Virus record (IMG/VR): IMGVR_UViG_2778261460_000005
Location: 1 to 37,721 of that record
From: a virus
Taxonomy: Duplodnaviria; Heunggongvirae; Uroviricota; Caudoviricetes
Direction: 5' to 3' (one strand)
DNA length: 37,721 bases
The translations under genes were made by a program, and so were the position numbers. The notes beneath the pieces are model-generated. The model was given only the letters and a program-made list of their open reading frames with translations, was not told the origin of the DNA and did no database searches. Positions 6,703-37,308 of the stretch are shown one piece after another. Every line of letters starts with the position of its first letter. Within the stretch, counting starts at the first letter, position 1.

Positions 6703-6900
6703 AAAGAAGATTTCCAATAATCAGAACAAGTCGGTTCCTGTTTAGTTACGAGCGACATTGCTCCGTGTATTCACTCGTTGGAATGAATACACAGTGCAGT
6801 GTTTATTAGTATGCCTGTCTTTTAACCACATCAGGCTCGGTGGTTCTCGTGTACCCCTACAGCGAGAAATCGGATAAACTATTACAACCCCTACAGTTTG

Positions 6901-7452
6901 ATGAGTATAGAAATGGATCTACTCGTTATTCTCGGACGAGTGTTCAGTAATGAACCTCTGGAGAGAACCATGTATATGATCGTTATCTGGGTTGGACTTC
7001 TGCTTTTAAGCCCAGATAACTGGCCTGAATATGTTAATGAGAGAATCGGTATTCCTCATGTGTGGCATGTTTTCGTCTTTGCTCTTGCATTTTCGCTAGC
7101 AATTAATGTGCATCGATTATCAGCTATTGCCAGCGCCAGATATAAGCGATTTAAGCTAAGAAAACGCATGAAGATGCAAAACGATAAAGTGCGATCAGTA
7201 ATTCAAAACCTTACAGAAGAGCAATCTATGGTTTTGTGCGCAGCCCTTAATGAAGGCAGGAAGTATGTGGTTACATCAAAACAATTCCCATACATTAGTG
7301 AGTTGATTGAGCTTGGTGTGTTGAACAAAACTTTTTCCCGATGGAACGGGAAGCATATATTATTCCCTATTGAGGATATTTACTGGACTGAATTAGTTGC
7401 CAGCTATGATCCATATAATATTGAGATAAAGCCAAGGCCAATATCTAAGTAA
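6901..7452 (+). CDS. sieB: Superinfection exclusion protein B
   Basis: Membrane-type protein on the opposite strand inside the pL operon between ea10-like gene and N, as in lambda; first ATG at 6901 (the track ORF starts at TTG 6898). Confidence 0.75.
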   Translation: MSIEMDLLVILGRVFSNEPLERTMYMIVIWVGLLLLSPDNWPEYVNERIGIPHVWHVFVFALAFSLAINVHRLSAIASARYKRFKLRKRMKMQNDKVRSVIQNLTEEQSMVLCAALNEGRKYVVTSKQFPYISELIELGVLNKTFSRWNGKHILFPIEDIYWTELVASYDPYNIEIKPRPISK

Positions 7453-7776
7453 CTAGGTAAGAGGAATCGATTTTCCCTTAATTTTCTGGCGTCCACTGCA
7501 TGTTATGCCGCGTTCGCCAGGCTTGCTGTACCATGTGCGCTGATTCTTGCGCTCAATACGTTGCAGGTTGCTTTCAATCTGTTCGTGGTATTCAGCCAGC
7601 ACTGTAAGGTCTATCGGATTTAGTGCGCTTTCTACTCGTGATTTCGGTTTGCGATTCAGCGAGAGAATAGGGCGGTTAACTGGTTTTGCGCTTACCCCAA
7701 CCAACAGGGGATTTGCTGCTTTCCATTGAGCCTGTTTCTCTGCGCGACGTTCGCGGCGGCGTGTTTGTGCATCCAT
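7453..7776 (-). CDS. N: Antitermination protein N (107 aa)
   Basis: MDAQTRRRERRAEKQAQWKAANPLLVGVSAKPVNRPILSLNRKPKSRVES... arginine-rich motif; start at internal ATG 7776. Confidence 0.9.
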   Translation of the reverse strand: MDAQTRRRERRAEKQAQWKAANPLLVGVSAKPVNRPILSLNRKPKSRVESALNPIDLTVLAEYHEQIESNLQRIERKNQRTWYSKPGERGITCSGRQKIKGKSIPLT

Positions 7777-7933
7777 CTGGATTCTCCTGTTAGTTAGCTT
7801 TGGTTGTGTGTGGGAGTCGTAGTCCTGAACGAAAACACCCCGCAATGGCACATTGGCTGCTAATCCGGATTCGCACTTCCGGCCAATGCTTCGTTTCGTA
7901 TCACACACACCAAAGCCTTCTGCTTTGAATGCT

Positions 7934-7964
7934 GCCCTTCTTCAGGGCTTAATTTTTAAGAGCA
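7934..7964 (-). promoter_or_regulatory. nutL (boxA TGCTCTTA, boxB GCCCTGAAGAAGGGC)
   Basis: Minus-strand boxB hairpin at 7934-7948 and boxA at 7957-7964, upstream of N. Confidence 0.7.
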
Positions 7965-8003
7965 TCACCTTCATGGTGGTTAGTGCGTCCTGCTGATGTG
8001 CTT

Positions 8004-8066
8004 AGTATCACCGCTAGTGGTATTTGTGTCAACACCGCCAGAGATAATTTATCACCGCAGATGGTT
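8004..8066 (-). promoter_or_regulatory. pL promoter with operators OL1, OL2, OL3
   Basis: Three 17-bp operators TATCACCGCTAGTGGTA, CAACACCGCCAGAGATA, TATCACCGCAGATGGTT; minus-strand -35 TTGACA (8027-8032) and -10 GATACT (8004-8009). Confidence 0.85.
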
Positions 8067-8225
8067 ATCTGTATGTTTTTTATATAGATTTATTTTTTGC
8101 AGGGTTGTGTGGCTTGGGAGGTGATCGAGAGATCAGAATTGCGTTGTTTAGTGAGTTGCACCTATTAATTTTAAAATAAATACAATTGGTTATGTGTTTT
8201 TAGGTGGGGCGATCGAGAGGCAAAG

Positions 8226-8249
8226 AAAACCCGGCTCGGTGGCCGGGTT
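8226..8249 (-). terminator. Intrinsic terminator downstream of the cargo gene (lambda-conserved hairpin)
   Basis: Minus strand AACCCGGC-CACCGA-GCCGGGTT hairpin followed by U-rich TTTCTTTG; a similar hairpin sits left of rexB in lambda as I recall. Confidence 0.55.
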
Positions 8250-8256
8250 GATGGGA

Positions 8257-9114
8257 TTATCGTTTATTTCTTTGATGTTTCTTTGCAGACTCAGCTTGAG
8301 TGTTTCCATACCTGCGTTTACCGCTATTGTTTTTTCCTCTAGGCTTGCCTTTTTTTCGATCTTCCCACCAGTCAGGTGCCGGGTCTGGCTCAACATGTAA
8401 AGCATCGGCAAGTCCTGATATCAAGCTGTATGACTGAACTCCATCAATGTGCTCTGACAGTGATGGGGTAACATTCTGTCTTAGTGGATCAAGAATAAAA
8501 TCAATACCTTTAATTCTGGCGTGTTTGGCGGCAGGCACAAAGTCTGAGTCCCCAGCAACAAGGACAATTACATCAACAAGTTTTTCATAAGCTAAAGTCG
8601 TGATATCCATCCCTAGCTTGATATCAACTTGTTTTTGTTTGATGTCATAGTAAAAATCATCATTTGTCAGTTCATCCCATTTTTTCGTTCCTTTCATCAG
8701 AGCATCAAGGGAGAATGTAGTTAGTTGCCATCGCTTATTATCAACAAGATTCCCTAATCTTAAGGCTGTTTTTCGAGTTTTTCTTAACTCTTCATGCAGC
8801 TCCGTTCTCAGAATATATGATTTTTCGAGTTTGAAATTCTTGCGACCAGGCGTCTTATTGCCAGGCTCAGGAAGTGGAAGGCGTGTTTGAATGTCGAGTG
8901 GTGGACAGTCATAGAAGTAAATTCTATAAAGCTCAAGCGGTTCCCTACGTTCTTGTGATTGACGTTTTCCATTAAGATGGGAAAGAACCATTGACCATAT
9001 TACTTTCATTATGCATTGCGCAGTCAGTTCATGCTCGGCGAAGTGTTTACGATGCGTAGCATGAACACGCTGCATGAAAAAACCCGCATCAATTAAAATT
9101 GCTGCTTTCTTCAT
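8257..9114 (-). CDS. Predicted NYN/LabA-like (PIN-fold) nuclease with basic C-terminal tail, 285 aa; occupies the rexAB position
   Basis: Motifs AAILIDAGFF (N-terminal Asp) and VIVLVAGDSDFVPAAKHARIKGIDFIL typical of LabA/NYN domains; C-terminus RKKGKPRGKNNSGKRRYG...KKHQRNKR; located between cI and OL. Confidence 0.75.
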   Translation of the reverse strand: MKKAAILIDAGFFMQRVHATHRKHFAEHELTAQCIMKVIWSMVLSHLNGKRQSQERREPLELYRIYFYDCPPLDIQTRLPLPEPGNKTPGRKNFKLEKSYILRTELHEELRKTRKTALRLGNLVDNKRWQLTTFSLDALMKGTKKWDELTNDDFYYDIKQKQVDIKLGMDITTLAYEKLVDVIVLVAGDSDFVPAAKHARIKGIDFILDPLRQNVTPSLSEHIDGVQSYSLISGLADALHVEPDPAPDWWEDRKKGKPRGKNNSGKRRYGNTQAESAKKHQRNKR

Positions 9115-9120
9115 AAGAGT

Positions 9121-9183
9121 CCCAAAAAAATAGCCCAGAGCCGTTATGCAGATATTAACAATTGTCTGCGAACGGGGCTGGGC
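9121..9183 (-). other. Leader stem-loop plus U-tract between promoter-like element and cargo gene start (terminator or attenuator-like)
   Basis: Minus strand GCCCAGCCCCGTT...AACGGCTCTGGGC imperfect hairpin with nested GCAGA/TCTGC stem, followed by TATTTTTTT ending 9 nt before the ATG. Confidence 0.4.
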
Positions 9184-9194
9184 TTGGTTTAATT

Positions 9195-9223
9195 AATCTA
9201 TGCCAAGTTGACTGTGCCGTCAA
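9195..9223 (-). promoter_or_regulatory. Putative sigma70 promoter TTGACG-N17-TAGATT overlapping a 5-bp inverted repeat
   Basis: Minus-strand -35 at 9218-9223 and -10 at 9195-9200; inverted repeat TTGAC-N6-GTCAA at 9208-9223. Confidence 0.35.
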
Positions 9224-9241
9224 CATAAAACTTACTTCCTA

Positions 9242-9958
<717 letters not shown>

Positions 9959-9965
9959 TTAAATC

Positions 9966-10031
9966 TATCACCGCAAGGGATAAATATCTAACACCGTGCG
10001 TGTTGACTACTTTACCTCTGGCGGTGATAAT
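9966..10031. promoter_or_regulatory. OR3-OR2-OR1 operators with divergent pRM/pR
   Basis: TATCACCGCAAGGGATA, TAACACCGTGCGTGTTG, TACCTCTGGCGGTGATA; pR -35 TTGACT (10003-10008) and -10 GATAAT (10026-10031). Confidence 0.85.
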
Positions 10032-10046
10032 GGTTGCATGTACTAA

Positions 10047-10256
<210 letters not shown>

Positions 10257-10263
10257 ATAACCC

Positions 10264-10295
10264 CGCTCTTACACATTCCAGCCCTGAAAAAGGGC
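10264..10295 (+). promoter_or_regulatory. nutR (boxA CGCTCTTA, boxB GCCCTGAAAAAGGGC)
   Basis: boxA at 10264-10271 and boxB hairpin at 10281-10295, immediately after cro. Confidence 0.7.
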
Positions 10296-10374
10296 ATCCA
10301 ATTAAACCACACCTATGGTGTATGCATTTATTTGCATACATTCAATCAATTGTTATCTAAGGAAATACTTACAT

Positions 10375-10668
10375 ATGGTTCGTGCAAACAAACGCAACGA
10401 GGCTCTACGAATCGAGAGTGCGTTGCTTAACAAAATCGCAATGCTTGGAACTGAGAAGACAGCGGAAGCTGTGGGAGTTGATAAGTCGCAGATCAGCAGG
10501 TGGAAGAGAGACTGGATTCCAAAGTTCTCAATGCTGCTTGCTGTTCTTGAATGGGGGGTCGTTGACGACGACATGGCTCGATTGGCGCGACAAGTTGCTG
10601 CGATTCTCACCAATAAAAAACGCCCGGCGGCAACCGAGCGTTCTGAACAAATCCAGATGGAGTTCTGA
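10375..10668 (+). CDS. cII: cII transcriptional activator (97 aa)
   Basis: MVRANKRNEALRIESALLNKIAMLGTEKTAEAVGVDKSQISRWKRDWIPKF...; start at ATG 10375 rather than the extended track ORF. Confidence 0.9.
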   Translation: MVRANKRNEALRIESALLNKIAMLGTEKTAEAVGVDKSQISRWKRDWIPKFSMLLAVLEWGVVDDDMARLARQVAAILTNKKRPAATERSEQIQMEF

Positions 10669-14672: not shown

Positions 14673-14747
14673 GGGTCAGTCGTATAAAGGTCATTACGGA
14701 AGGCTGTTAACCTTCTTATCGTGGTTCGAGTCCACGCTGTCCCGCCA
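14673..14747 (+). tRNA. Phage-encoded tRNA, anticodon GUU (Asn-like)
   Basis: Hand-folded 75-nt cloverleaf: acceptor GGGTCAG/CTGTCCC with one T-T mismatch, anticodon stem GAAGG/CCTTC, loop CTGTTAA, T-arm CGTGG-TTCGAGT-CCACG, 3' GCCA. Confidence 0.45.
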
Positions 14748-14752
14748 AATAT

Positions 14753-14828
14753 GCTGGTTTAGCTCCAATGGTAGAGCGGTCGCCTTGTAAGCGAATGGGT
14801 AGCGGTTCAAGTCCGTTAACCAGCACCA
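14753..14828 (+). tRNA. Phage-encoded tRNA, anticodon UGU (Thr-like)
   Basis: Hand-folded 76-nt cloverleaf: 7-bp acceptor GCTGGTT/AACCAGC, D-arm GCTC-CAATGGTA-GAGC, anticodon loop CTTGTAA, T-arm AGCGG-TTCAAGT-CCGTT, 3' ACCA. Confidence 0.65.
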
Positions 14829-34325: not shown

Positions 34326-35078
34326 ATGGCAGTATCTGACCAGACCCGCAGCGGCGACCTTGCCGAAACATTCAAATCTGAACGGGAAACAACAAAGAAC
34401 CAGATCCGTGTCGCCTTGCCTGGCATTGTTCAGTCATTCGATCCCGACGCGGTGACGGCGGTTGTGCAGCCAGCTATCCGTTCGGTTGAAAAGGATAACG
34501 ACGGTAACCGCATTACCAAAAATTACCCGTTGCTGGTGGATGTGCCAGTGGTATTTCCGCGCGGCGGAGGCTGTACGTTGACTTTTCCGGTTAAAGCCGG
34601 GGATGAGTGTCTTGTCGTTTTTGCCGATCGTTGTATTGATTTCTGGTGGCAGAGCGGTGGGATACAGGAGCCGGTCGATGACAGAATGCATGATTTATCG
34701 GATGCGTTTTGTATTGCCGGTCCCCAGTCGCAGGCGAGGAAGATTAGCGGTATTAATACCAGTGCCACACAGTTGCGTAGTGACGACGGCAGCACCTATT
34801 TTGAGCTTAATCCTGATACCCGGAAAATTAAAATTGTCGCCCCGGGTGGTCTTGATGTGGTTGCCCCTCTGGCTGATTTTTCTGAGAAAGTAACCATTCA
34901 TGGCCTGTTAACCTGGATGGGGGGCATGGTGGGGTCTGTTGTTTCTGGTGTGGCTTCAAAAATCACTGGTGCTGTTGAGTTCTTGGGGAGCGTTAAGGCT
35001 AACGGCAAGCCAATCGATGATACGCACACTCATGGCGGTGTTCAGCGCGGTGGAAGCAATACCGATGGGGTAAACTGA
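34326..35078 (+). CDS. Putative baseplate spike protein (gpV-like), 250 aa
   Basis: Position before W/J/I-like baseplate genes; Gly-rich C-terminus. Confidence 0.55.
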   Translation: MAVSDQTRSGDLAETFKSERETTKNQIRVALPGIVQSFDPDAVTAVVQPAIRSVEKDNDGNRITKNYPLLVDVPVVFPRGGGCTLTFPVKAGDECLVVFADRCIDFWWQSGGIQEPVDDRMHDLSDAFCIAGPQSQARKISGINTSATQLRSDDGSTYFELNPDTRKIKIVAPGGLDVVAPLADFSEKVTIHGLLTWMGGMVGSVVSGVASKITGAVEFLGSVKANGKPIDDTHTHGGVQRGGSNTDGVN

Positions 35079-35431
35079 TGCGATACAGACGTGAAGACGC
35101 CGATGGCGATTACACCTTTGGCAGCGGTGATGACACCTGGCTGATTAACTCACCGGAGGCCGTGGCGCAGGCGGTAAAAACGCGATTCGAATTGTGGTAT
35201 GGGCAGTGGTTTCTCGACACCACAGAGGGGACACCGTGGATTCAGTCCGTACTCGGTAAGCAGAAGCCGGAAACCTACAACTTGGCGATCCGTAAGCGCA
35301 TCCTCGAAACGCGGGGCGTTAAATCCATTCTCTCTTTCAATACGACAGTGAACACGACGACGCGCCGCGTCCAGTTCTTCGCTGAGATCGACACTATCTA
35401 CGGAACAACGACAGTAACCAGCGAGGCATAA
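35078..35431 (+). CDS. Putative baseplate wedge protein (gpW/gp25-like), 117 aa
   Basis: Size and position immediately upstream of the J-like gene; ATGA coupling. Confidence 0.5.
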   Translation: MRYRREDADGDYTFGSGDDTWLINSPEAVAQAVKTRFELWYGQWFLDTTEGTPWIQSVLGKQKPETYNLAIRKRILETRGVKSILSFNTTVNTTTRRVQFFAEIDTIYGTTTVTSEA

Positions 35432-36631
35432 ATGGCCCTCAATTTGGATACACTCGGCTTATCGGCAACGGTAACCGCTGAGGGGATCAGCGCGCCTGAT
35501 TACCAGACGATACTCGATACCCTGACAAGCTATTTCCAGCAGATTTACGGCAGTGACGCTTATCTGGAACCGGACAGCAAAGACGGCCAGATGGTGGCTC
35601 TGATGGCGCTGGCGATTCATGATGCCAATAATATGGCGATAACTGTCTACAACTGTTTTTCACCGGCAACCGGCTATGGGGCTGCACTGACCAGTAACGT
35701 GAAAATAAATGGTATTTCACGTAAAGGCGCGACGAATTCTACGGTTGATTTGCTTCTTACAGGAACTGCCGGAACAACCATCATTAATGGCAGCGTGAAA
35801 GACAGTAATAATGTGATATGGCGTTTGCCTGCTTCAGTGGTGGTCGGCGTGGATGGTACAGTGATGGTGACCGCAAAATGTTCTGTCAGTGGTGCAGTGG
35901 CGGCGCTGGCTGGAACTATCACTGAAATTAATACGCCAACCCGTGGCTGGGTTTCGGTAACCAATCCTGCTGCAGCTACTGTAGGCACTCCAGCAGAAAC
36001 TGATGCGGAGTTACGTATCCGCCAGTCGCAAAGTGTTGCGTTGCCATCAATAACCCCATTTGAAGCACTGGATGGTGCTGTTTCTAATGTTACCGGTGTA
36101 ACCCGCCACAAACTCTATGAAAACGATACTGGTTCGGAGGACGGTAACGGGTTACCGCCACACTCTGTTGCTGTAATTGTGGATGGCGGTGATGTGACGG
36201 ATATTGCTCAGGCTATCAGAGGAAATAAAGGCCAGGGGACAGCCACTCACGGTACAACATCCGTTACGGTTCCGGATAAATACGGCAATCCCCATGTAAT
36301 CAAATTCTCGCGTTCCAGTGATGTGCCTGTTTACGCCCGGATTAAATTAAAAGTTTTTACGGGTTATACCTCACAGATAGGGCAGCAGATCCAGCAGGCT
36401 ATTTCCGACTATATCAATAGTCTGATGATTGGTGATTCGGTCCTTTTAAGTCGCATTTACTCACCGGCGAATCTTGGCGTGGTGAGTGGCGGGAATGCAC
36501 GCTATTACGATATTCAGGAACTGACGATTGGGAAATCCCCGGGGGCTTTGTCGTCATCAAACATTGATATCAGATACAACGAATCTACGTCCTGTACCCC
36601 GGAAAATATCGTTATAACGGTGGAGTCATGA
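35432..36631 (+). CDS. Baseplate J-like protein (399 aa)
   Basis: Size and position typical of gpJ/gp47-family baseplate proteins. Confidence 0.7.
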   Translation: MALNLDTLGLSATVTAEGISAPDYQTILDTLTSYFQQIYGSDAYLEPDSKDGQMVALMALAIHDANNMAITVYNCFSPATGYGAALTSNVKINGISRKGATNSTVDLLLTGTAGTTIINGSVKDSNNVIWRLPASVVVGVDGTVMVTAKCSVSGAVAALAGTITEINTPTRGWVSVTNPAAATVGTPAETDAELRIRQSQSVALPSITPFEALDGAVSNVTGVTRHKLYENDTGSEDGNGLPPHSVAVIVDGGDVTDIAQAIRGNKGQGTATHGTTSVTVPDKYGNPHVIKFSRSSDVPVYARIKLKVFTGYTSQIGQQIQQAISDYINSLMIGDSVLLSRIYSPANLGVVSGGNARYYDIQELTIGKSPGALSSSNIDIRYNESTSCTPENIVITVES

Positions 36632-37308
36632 GCAAATACACCGAACTAATCACGAACTACCACGCCACCAAACCTAAATTTCTTGCGCATGTTGATCTGA
36701 TGACCCGGCCACTTATTGATGTTGCGGCTGCCACCAGAGGGCTGATTACTGCATTTGATATTGACTCTGCGGTTGGTGTGCAACTTGACATTCTTGGATT
36801 GTGGATCGGACGTAGCCGTGTTGTCAGCCAGCCTATCTCAGGTGTCTATTTCAGCTGGGATACCGACGGGCTTGGATATGATCAGGGGGTATGGCAGGGA
36901 CCATACGATCCTGATTCAGGATACATGTATCTCAGCGATGAAACTTATCGTGTCATTCTTAAAGCGAAGATTGCGATTAATAACTGGGACGGACGGAATG
37001 ATTCGCTTCCGGCAATTCTTGACGCGGCAACAGCAGGATCCGGGCTGCGAATGCAGATAGTCGATAACCAGGACATGACGATATCGGTCTGGGTCTTTCC
37101 TGATACTGATATTTCAGATGTATCGCGTGAGTTAATTGCGGCAATTAAACAGGGGTATCTAACAGTAAAAGCCGCCGGGGTATGGGCGGGGGGCATTGAA
37201 ACACCTTCGGTGGAAACTCCATCGGAAGGCTCTAAATTTTTTGGTTTTGATATGGATAACGAATTCATCAGTGGTTTTGATGTAGGGGCATGGGGAGTAT
37301 TACTCTGA
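36628..37308 (+). CDS. Putative baseplate/tail protein (gpI-like), 226 aa
   Basis: ATGA-coupled to J-like gene, precedes tail fiber. Confidence 0.55.

Follow-up and report, generated by a model that had tools for sequence, protein, structure and literature searches.

A NYN gene in the rexAB slot of a lambda-type immunity region

The window analysed here is the whole 37,721-nucleotide stretch of the IMG/VR virus record IMGVR_UViG_2778261460_000005 (Caudoviricetes). In its lambda-type immunity region, a single gene for a NYN-domain protein takes the place of rexA and rexB. The open reading frame (ORF; 8257..9114, minus strand) is intact, as a preliminary description of this DNA had claimed, starts with ATG, encodes 285 amino acids, and ends with a stop codon at 8257-8259. 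It is preceded by a predicted promoter and by a hairpin with a U-run, and these three parts make up an autonomous unit in the rexAB slot that moves as one piece. The most informative feature of the locus is the leader RNA, which the preliminary description had missed.

The lambda-type cI repressor gene (9242..9955, minus strand; 237 amino acids with Peptidase_S24 and HTH_3 domains) adjoins the NYN gene upstream on the same strand and shares 98% DNA identity with lambda cI. In a blastn comparison of the window with lambda (NC_001416), positions 6812-8249 correspond to lambda 34396-35826 at 96.4% identity, and positions 9238-10415 to lambda 37223-38400 at 98.0% identity. N, nutL, OL1-3, cI, OR1-3, and cro, described as lambda-like from the outset, are all contained in these 96-98% identical blocks. 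The intervening cassette (8250..9237, no strand assigned) is without lambda homology; here, 1396 bp of lambda (35827-37222, comprising rexB, rexA, and the spacer before cI) are swapped for 988 bp of unrelated sequence. The left junction is the base beside the rexB stop codon, and the right junction lies 4 nt past the cI stop codon (9242-9244), which bears out the earlier claim of a precise cassette swap. Homology to RexA or RexB is not found in the cassette, for which Pfam and PHROG return only NYN and phrog_5783, respectively.

A terminator scan located a terminator-like hairpin with a T-rich tail (8228..8249, minus strand) 8 nt after the NYN stop codon, where a conserved hairpin had been noted before. 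It lies in the block that ends at 8249 (lambda 35826) and is homologous to the lambda sequence just 3' of rexB, in the tImm region. Because the left junction adjoins the rexB stop codon, we assign this hairpin to lambda's own post-rexB terminator; from the scan and the lambda homology, it is predicted to act as the 3' terminator of the NYN unit. In other lambda-immunity phages, the cargo of the cI-OL junction is variable, consisting of rexAB, rexA with another ORF, hicAB, gp48/gp49, or other ORFs, and the slot between cI and OL is a cargo hotspot. With its own predicted promoter, a 3' terminator, and its position as an extra gene at a junction that varies among related phages, the NYN gene has the attributes of a moron.

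A predicted promoter and a leader of terminator shape ahead of the NYN gene

On the minus strand, the sequence ahead of the NYN gene reads as promoter, 10 nt, 53-nt hairpin, A-U7 (9131-9124), GGGACUCUU, and AUG. The sigma-70-type promoter (9195..9223, minus strand) was identified by a consensus scan, with a -35 box TTGACG at 9223-9218, a 17-nt spacer, and a -10 box TAGATT at 9200-9195. Transcription is predicted to start near 9188, within the 10 nt between the -10 box and the hairpin and about 4 nt ahead of the base of the hairpin stem. The hairpin itself (9132..9184, minus strand) is separated by one A (9131) from the U7 run (9124..9130, minus strand), which ends 9 nt before the ATG (9114-9112). 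A putative Shine-Dalgarno-like GGGA, read from the sequence (9120..9123, minus strand), stands 5 nt before the start codon. In the predicted fold, the hairpin and U-run have the form of a Rho-independent terminator placed inside a 5' leader.

This hairpin architecture is found ahead of the NYN gene in all cassette lineages, which range from 100% to approximately 47% protein identity. Of 38 distinct class-I upstream regions, 30 have the promoter arrangement at a fixed distance; the 150 nt upstream hold only a single further match of this kind. TTGAC by itself falls in register, within the -50..-31 bins, in 36 of the 38. Unbiased folds of the upstream 100 nt reveal a U-rich run after the hairpin in all class-I lineages.

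A palindrome, GTTGAC-N6-GTCAAC (9207..9224, no strand assigned), overlaps the -35 hexamer. It recurs in many, though not all, enteric and phage lineages, where the spacers differ and the arms change in step (TTGACG..CGTCAA versus TTGACA..TGTCAA). It may serve as an operator to which a dimeric protein binds, or fold into a small hairpin in the read-through RNA. In nine of the 38 lineages (L016, L026, L033, L035-L037, L040, L069, and L099), a second TTGACA box is found about 30 nt upstream of the main -35 box and about 70 nt upstream of the hairpin. This may give them tandem promoters; the corresponding position in the window falls in the 3' end of cI.

The preliminary description had implied that the gene is expressed from the cI transcript in the manner of rexAB. 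As a conserved promoter of its own and a leader of terminator shape precede the ATG, and any pRM transcript would meet the hairpin, the NYN gene is not simply co-transcribed with cI. The corresponding model, in which a single protein is made from the cI (pRM/pRE) transcript, senses infection, and acts as an abortive infection (Abi) or exclusion effector with no part played by the RNA, agrees with the strand, the slot, and the downstream terminator, all of which are as for rexAB. Relatives hold exclusion or toxin cargo (rexAB, hicAB) in this slot, and about 100 extra residues and a basic tail of the protein, described below, could sense or bind a substrate. Nevertheless, we judge this model unlikely, as a dedicated conserved promoter and a terminator-shaped hairpin stand between cI and the ATG, both are present even where no repressor gene lies upstream, and the protein belongs to no defence family.

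Structure, covariation, and specificity of the leader hairpin

The 53-nt leader hairpin was characterised by folding, covariation, and a covariance model. Its three parts are a GC-rich basal stem of 7 bp, a middle stem of 4-5 bp, and an upper stem of 5 bp, which carries a loop of 12 nt (CAAUUGUUAAUA); within the loop, the segment UUGUUAAUA is singled out. From the predicted start to the U-run, the leader measures 65 nt and folds at -25 kcal/mol; its minimum free energy structure equals the centroid, the z-score is -5.71, and none of 200 shuffled sequences is as stable. For the 146-nt cI-NYN spacer as a whole, the z-score (-1.53) does not stand out, the signal being confined to the 65-nt leader.

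Across 22 distinct class-I sequences, RNAalifold yields 16 pairs, 14 of them with double compensatory changes. Paired cells amount to 96.9%, compared with 22-42% for 3' partners displaced by 1-3 columns, and the covariation score is 0.555, compared with 0.02-0.15; none of 500 shuffles attains the observed values. The pairs include G-U pairs, and the covariance model scores the sense strand at about 80 bits and the antisense strand at about 25 bits. Together, the G-U pairs and this asymmetry argue that the structure acts at the RNA level.

We scanned approximately 1.8 Mb on both strands with the covariance model, including loci outside the set from which the model was built. All 97 strong matches (52-84 bits) are located directly upstream of a NYN gene or its remnant, on the same strand. 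No other terminator in the sequence searched scores above about 25 bits, and the lambda cI-rexA spacer gives no match. In Rfam 15, no relevant family, abiF included, matches the window between 7900 and 9400 at E <= 1, and across 12 diverse loci no family attains its gathering score in the upstream region. A literature search returned no RNA motif described upstream of NYN/LabA genes. We regard the leader hairpin as a well-supported candidate RNA family without an Rfam entry.

Two other assignments were rejected. A plain cI terminator is at odds with a hairpin that sits after a conserved promoter; moreover, the hairpin persists at loci whose upstream gene is divergent, and so is not the terminator of that gene. 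An integron attC-like or other DNA-level recombination site conflicts with cassette boundaries (8250 and 9237) that lie off the hairpin, with the G-U pairs, and with the strand-asymmetric model scores.

A further possibility is that the element is a plain terminator or insulator, or an mRNA-stabilising 5' hairpin, which hitch-hikes with the cassette and has no relationship to the protein. Its canonical form, with a GC-rich basal stem and U7, would suit such a role, and an identical copy without a NYN gene, found before a tRNA-Arg gene in a Q-lysis region, occupies a sensible site for a terminator. An insulator, however, is expected before a promoter, whereas this hairpin comes after one. Generic terminators also lack a three-part architecture maintained across phyla, with internal loops, a loop sequence, and restriction to a single gene family, and the covariance model singled out none of them in the sequence searched. 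A plain terminator is, in our assessment, highly improbable.

Distant leader versions and copies without an intact gene

Distant homologs in Beta- and Gammaproteobacteria, Acidobacteria, Elusimicrobia, Halomonas, and Bacteroidales are preceded by a related two-stem element with a U-run. In all of these but the Bacteroidales, its basal stem (GCCCnnGG / CCnnGGGC) is followed by an asymmetric internal loop, a covarying upper stem, and the U-run. The internal loop, CAGUA(C/A) opposite CGA(N)C, resembles the AGUA/GAA motif of loop-E/sarcin-ricin structures, a typical protein-binding platform. Its carriers (L127, L134, L142, L156, L158, L161, L163, L165, L166, L171-L174, L176, and L177) have it about 30-90 nt upstream of the NYN start, and in the enteric leaders a Watson-Crick stem (CCGUU/AACGG) occupies the same alignment columns. 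A subset of 15 leaders from Beta- and Gammaproteobacteria and Acidobacteria gave a poor consensus of 11 pairs, and single-sequence folds were relied on there. The Bacteroidales leader is enlarged, with 15 pairs, 98.4% of cells paired, and 7 covarying pairs, and both controls collapse. Its loop retains UUGAUAAU, compared with UUGUUAAU in E. coli. The loop motif UUG(U/A)UAA is thus retained from Proteobacteria to Bacteroidales, while the stems covary.

A different leader is found in the Rhodanobacteraceae (L113-L155: Rhodanobacter, Dyella, and Frateuria), whose homologs are syntenic chromosomal genes. Here, a -10-like TAGAAT/TAAAAT box is followed by a short GC-rich hairpin with no U-run. As judged from these alignments and folds, the leader element is widespread, though not universal.

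In IMG/VR, the enteric hairpin core has 40 exact matches, and in 38 of these a NYN ATG follows within 24-29 nt. The other two are an internal-deletion allele (L196, about 7300-7540) and a copy with no NYN gene (L210). A second internal-deletion allele is found in the Stx2a phage Stx2_EH0505 (L003, 1055-1544), where it adjoins an IS3-family element and is accompanied by an intact copy in the same phage. In both alleles, the sequence equivalent to window 8129-8375 is fused to that of 9021-9272; the promoter, the leader, and about 31 codons are kept, while the catalytic domain is lost. Their leader hairpin scores 81 bits with the model. In L210 (3560-3699), a sequence-identical 53-nt hairpin with its U-run stands 15 nt ahead of a gene for tRNA-Arg(UCU); a Q-like ORF flanks this site on one side and holin/lysozyme genes on the other. 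This orphan leader may be a co-opted terminator, a deletion remnant, or a decoy RNA.

Predicted structure of the NYN protein

The fold proposed for the protein in the preliminary description, of the NYN/LabA PIN-like type, is recovered by both profile search and structure prediction. Pfam NYN (PF01936) matches at E = 6.8e-9 and 36.8 bits, against a cut-off of 24.2, with an alignment that spans only residues 158-205; precomputed PF01936 matches are present in all listed homologs. An AlphaFold2 model built with 34 homologs has a predicted local distance difference test score (pLDDT) of 86.6 and a predicted template modelling score (pTM) of 0.78, and adopts an alpha/beta fold of the PIN-like type, similar to 2qip. 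Searching PDB sequences with a profile returned nothing at E <= 1, so that only fold comparison worked, and NCBIfam gave TIGR00288 alone, far under its cut-off. Approximately 100 ordered residues lie beyond the NYN core and are family-specific.

The 34 homologs (41-86% identity) share seven invariant aspartates, D9, D69, D164, D170, D189, D191, and D224, together with eleven invariant Arg/Lys residues. These include Asp9 and the aspartates of the GDSDF motif (D189 and D191), which had been singled out before as candidate catalytic residues. In the model, D9, D69, D164, D170, D189, and D191 lie where a strand has its C-terminus or a helix its N-terminus, in the style of a PIN-like active site. 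The NYN.COG1432/LabA group is defined by four conserved acidic residues for metal binding; the protein has this set, with the six aspartates as candidate ligands. Profile, fold, and acidic residues place it in the NYN family, and the fold together with the complete acidic set predicts a metal-dependent nuclease.

The C-terminus forms a Lys/Arg-rich tail, predicted from pLDDT and the alignment to be disordered (codons about 257-285; 8260..8346, minus strand), with pLDDT values of about 48-53 for residues 261-285. Earlier put at about 45 residues, it measures about 30-35, from about residue 253-257 to 285, with 14 Lys/Arg among the last 34 residues. Its sequence is variable and mostly basic among homologs, and the alignment lacks it in two of them (P0031 and P0046).

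A PIN-like fold would also be compatible with a flap endonuclease (FEN)-like enzyme, that is, a DNA flap or 5' nuclease acting on replication or recombination intermediates of an incoming phage or of the prophage. We give this very little credence, since the helical arch and H3TH elements of such enzymes were not detected, Pfam returns NYN alone, and the NYN enzymes characterised to date are RNases.

Distribution and genomic context

The protein is already present in databases, as a "NYN domain-containing protein" in RefSeq and as PHROG 5783 of "unknown function". An identical protein is encoded on at least 1000 contigs, and variants of at least 90% identity occur in Klebsiella, Salmonella, Enterobacter, and Tatumella. 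At least 80% of a query that spans the cassette (8100-9300) is covered in 74 of 5426 complete E. coli genomes and in 54 phage records. The literature search found no functional study of a phage NYN protein and no account of the lambdoid rex slot as a defence hotspot.

In several complete RefSeq E. coli genomes, the ORF is split by PGAP into a NYN coding sequence of 117 or 146 amino acids and an N-terminal hypothetical or PIN domain-containing fragment marked "pseudo, missing C-terminus". Two such loci, L004 9158-10015 and L001 4158-5015 (both equivalent to window 8257-9114), translate without interruption. Frameshifted copies, as suggested by the annotation, were accordingly rejected, and the split is an artefact. 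In a separate set of contigs (L084-L087, L198, L201, L208, and L215), the NYN ORF matches residues 1-118 only and is followed by a 324-residue integrase-like ORF; another element, or a prophage end, seems to interrupt the gene in these contigs.

The cassette has also been exchanged between immunity regions. In Stx2a phages with a different cI and a different N, the sequence corresponding to window 8128-9260 is 98-99.6% identical. In these Stx2a-converting phages, the identical protein follows a 933W-type repressor gene and a DUF3024 gene and precedes a different N. Beside the DUF3024 gene, a lambda-type cI has left its stop codon and final 19 nt as a non-coding scar (L003 5063-5085, equivalent to window 9238-9260), which indicates that the cassette moved from one immunity region to another. 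From this sequence trace, the transfer was probably outward from a lambda-immunity phage.

We surveyed the gene context in 77 IMG/VR loci, which are redundant and hence not independent. In 38 of them, the NYN gene is directly downstream of, and co-directional with, a repressor gene of one of three S24 CI-type families. A further 20 have it in the Q-lysis region, convergent with Q or between a Q-like gene and holin/lysozyme genes. On other mobile elements, it adjoins toxin-antitoxin (TA) modules: a P. aeruginosa homolog lies beside HigBA on a KfrA/KorA plasmid-like element, and a Pantoea homolog is found in an island with YhaV/PrlF and Phd. No protein partner is conserved across the contexts examined, which upholds the description of the nuclease as a single-gene system. 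The distribution is that of a small autonomous mobile module, with a patchy, TA-like pattern that also takes in prophage moron slots and lone insertions amid housekeeping genes.

The window itself starts in proA and tRNA-Thr(CGU), followed by an integrase gene at 1459-2622, which places the prophage at thrW. The prophage tRNA genes at 14673-14828 encode tRNA-Asn(GUU) and tRNA-Thr(UGU); in the related genome L004, they are found downstream of the Q region. In the Pseudomonas yamanorum locus L104, Rfam matches to C4 antisense RNA and c4-a1b1 (7509-7708) lie about 2 kb downstream of the NYN gene and point to a P1/P7-type prophage immunity region nearby.

A possible RNA-controlled nuclease module

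We tentatively propose that promoter, leader RNA, and NYN protein form an RNA-controlled RNase module similar to type III TA or AbiF/RCd22 systems; by analogy with these systems, we hold the composite model to be a reasonable possibility short of an expectation. In this model, the constitutive-looking sigma-70 promoter would drive the unit. Most transcripts from it, as well as read-through from cI, would stop at the hairpin and yield an RNA of about 60-65 nt. NYN mRNA would arise from read-through only, keeping the nuclease scarce in the lysogen. Because the loop motif persists and the NYN protein is the sole factor co-inherited everywhere, the leader RNA is probably the ligand of this protein. 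It would serve either as an inhibitor, that is, an RNA antitoxin like ToxI with ToxN or RCd22 with AbiF, or in autoregulation, as an operator or a site of cleavage. If the leader RNA were lost or the RNA-to-protein ratio shifted, through transcription shut-off by an infecting phage or through loss of the element, a non-specific or stem-loop-directed RNase would be released. The outcome would be growth arrest, in the form of abortive infection or exclusion, or prophage addiction.

A bolder extension holds that the leader hairpin and the NYN protein represent an unrecognised class of RNA-protein TA/Abi systems present in several phyla and occupying the rex and Q-lysis slots, with the leader-only copies in Stx-type phages as decoy or immunity RNAs. 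Such a class would combine type III-like logic with a NYN toxin and a single terminator-hairpin RNA. We consider it a speculative possibility that is doubtful at present.

Several observations weigh against the composite model. Promoter and terminator are predicted, from consensus and fold respectively, and the NYN.COG1432/LabA group is one of unknown function. The Rhodanobacteraceae leader, having no U-run, implies that a terminator is not obligatory for the NYN family. A labile antitoxin is not easily reconciled with a hairpin at the 5' terminus, where hairpins usually make an RNA more stable. A type III antitoxin is a tandem repeat array, whereas the leader has just one hairpin, which doubles as the terminator, and Tandem Repeats Finder detects 0 arrays in 9080-9300. 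PADLOC-DB 2.0 contains no full-length match to the protein, and HEC-09, a candidate NYN protein of PADLOC that is embedded in Hma systems, gave no protection against the phages tested. In 38 non-syntenic species, the genes flanking the homolog differ every time and are mostly housekeeping; their 136 flanking ORFs comprise 3 integrases, one AbiEi, and a few ATPase-type PADLOC matches, so that guilt by association yields no defence-island signal in these genomes. In Proteus, the homolog is a single gene next to glmS that looks fixed in the chromosome. The anti-phage role put forward in the preliminary description finds no direct support in weak partial PADLOC matches, an unprotective HEC-09, and mostly housekeeping neighbours; anti-phage activity of the NYN unit is plausible but unsupported.

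The same housekeeping neighbours and the fixed Proteus gene would be natural for an autoregulated accessory RNase without a defence role, with the leader as a cis attenuator or feedback site that would hold the enzyme at a constant level, and the enzyme active in LabA-like host RNA processing or physiology, as an ordinary moron. Leader hairpins commonly mediate autoregulation of ribonucleases, and the rnc, rne, and pnp leaders or the Regnase-1 stem-loop would be models for such a site. Regulation and the processing of tRNA and rRNA, not defence, are the roles with which the LabA-type NYN group has been connected; the CRISPR-associated NYN protein works in RNA maturation; and the phage protein is not in PADLOC. 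Against such a benign enzyme stand its recurrence in two classic slots of lysogenic conversion and exclusion (38 of 77 loci post-repressor, 20 of 77 Q-lysis), the TA modules that adjoin the gene on mobile elements, and a patchy, mobile distribution with a 99-100% identical cassette in unrelated phages. A terminating leader 9 nt before the ATG would also be an unusually severe brake. We rate this explanation as possible, though on the doubtful side.

If the leader RNA controls or neutralises the nuclease, the composite model would add a new protein fold and RNA architecture to the RNA-based toxin and Abi systems, of which few kinds are known. It would provide a first function for the large LabA-type NYN branch and would explain the replacement of Rex in many lambdoid prophages of E. 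coli, Klebsiella, and Salmonella, Stx2a-converting phages included. Whatever the function, the hairpin is a candidate RNA family, which predicts a terminated transcript of about 60-65 nt and derepression on disruption. While the NYN gene itself is known, what is new is a leader RNA element tied to a large NYN family and absent from Rfam 15 and the literature searched. With this element, what had been a hypothetical rex-slot nuclease becomes a defined RNA-protein module that is open to testing.

Comparison with known systems

The NYN unit shares with lambda RexA/RexB the slot between the cI stop codon and the tImm hairpin, the strand, and the downstream terminator, and like them is lysogen-side cargo of a lambda-immunity region. 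In contrast, it has no sequence or fold relation to them and consists of one gene instead of two. Its product has a nuclease fold, whereas the Rex system pairs a DNA-binding protein with a membrane protein, and it has its own predicted promoter and leader terminator, whereas the rex genes are co-transcribed with cI. Other repressor-adjacent cargo, namely hicAB in HK106, gp48/gp49 in HK97, and BstA in BTP1, uses the same exchange point for lysogen-expressed toxin or exclusion genes; these proteins are unrelated to the NYN protein, and none is reported with a terminator-type leader RNA.

Among proteins of similar fold, the MARF1 NYN domain (5yaa) and the LabA-like VPA0982 (2qip) are only 16-18% identical to the phage protein, which differs by about 100 extra ordered residues and the basic tail. 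MARF1 is a eukaryotic, multi-domain protein, and the function of 2qip is unknown. The CRISPR-associated NYN protein of a B. fragilis type III system, the one prokaryotic NYN protein with published biochemistry, is an Mn2+-dependent, sequence-non-specific single-stranded RNA nuclease with a proposed role in CRISPR RNA trimming. It is likewise a stand-alone prokaryotic NYN protein, encoded in an antiviral locus; no leader motif has been reported for it, and its genomic context differs. HEC-09, also a bacterial NYN-domain protein and proposed defence RNase, has weak hidden Markov model similarity over 46 residues (E = 2e-4, residues 155-200), and a second partial match in PADLOC is NYN PDLC01154 (E = 1.4e-3, residues 164-206). 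Unlike the phage protein, HEC-09 has an N-terminal helix-turn-helix-like domain and sits in Hma loci.

The closest likeness in organisation is to RNA-controlled systems. In type III TA systems, a single promoter is followed by a short structured non-coding RNA, a Rho-independent terminator, and a ribonuclease gene expressed through read-through, and the systems are carried on mobile elements. ToxIN, CptIN, TenpIN, and AbiQ share this layout and mobile carriage with the NYN unit, for which the layout is predicted from sequence only, with the promoter at 9223-9195 and the hairpin and U7 at 9184-9124, between promoter and gene. The predicted toxin, however, has a NYN/PIN-like fold and not that of ToxN, CptN, or TenpN, and PADLOC returns no ToxN/AbiQ-type match. 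On these sequence comparisons, the unit is not a type III TA system in the defined sense, and the likeness is architectural only.

The AbiF/RCd22 system of the C. difficile phi027 prophage (RF03085) differs in that its protein is Abi_2/HEPN-like and its RNA consists of two abiF motifs and a separate terminator; the NYN unit gives a Pfam match to NYN only and no Rfam match to abiF in 7900-9400 at E <= 1. RCd22 RNA attenuates transcription and binds the toxic protein. Like AbiF/RCd22, the NYN unit is prophage-borne and has a predicted layout in which a housekeeping-sigma promoter drives a conserved hairpin RNA that ends in a terminator and an effector gene is reached by read-through.

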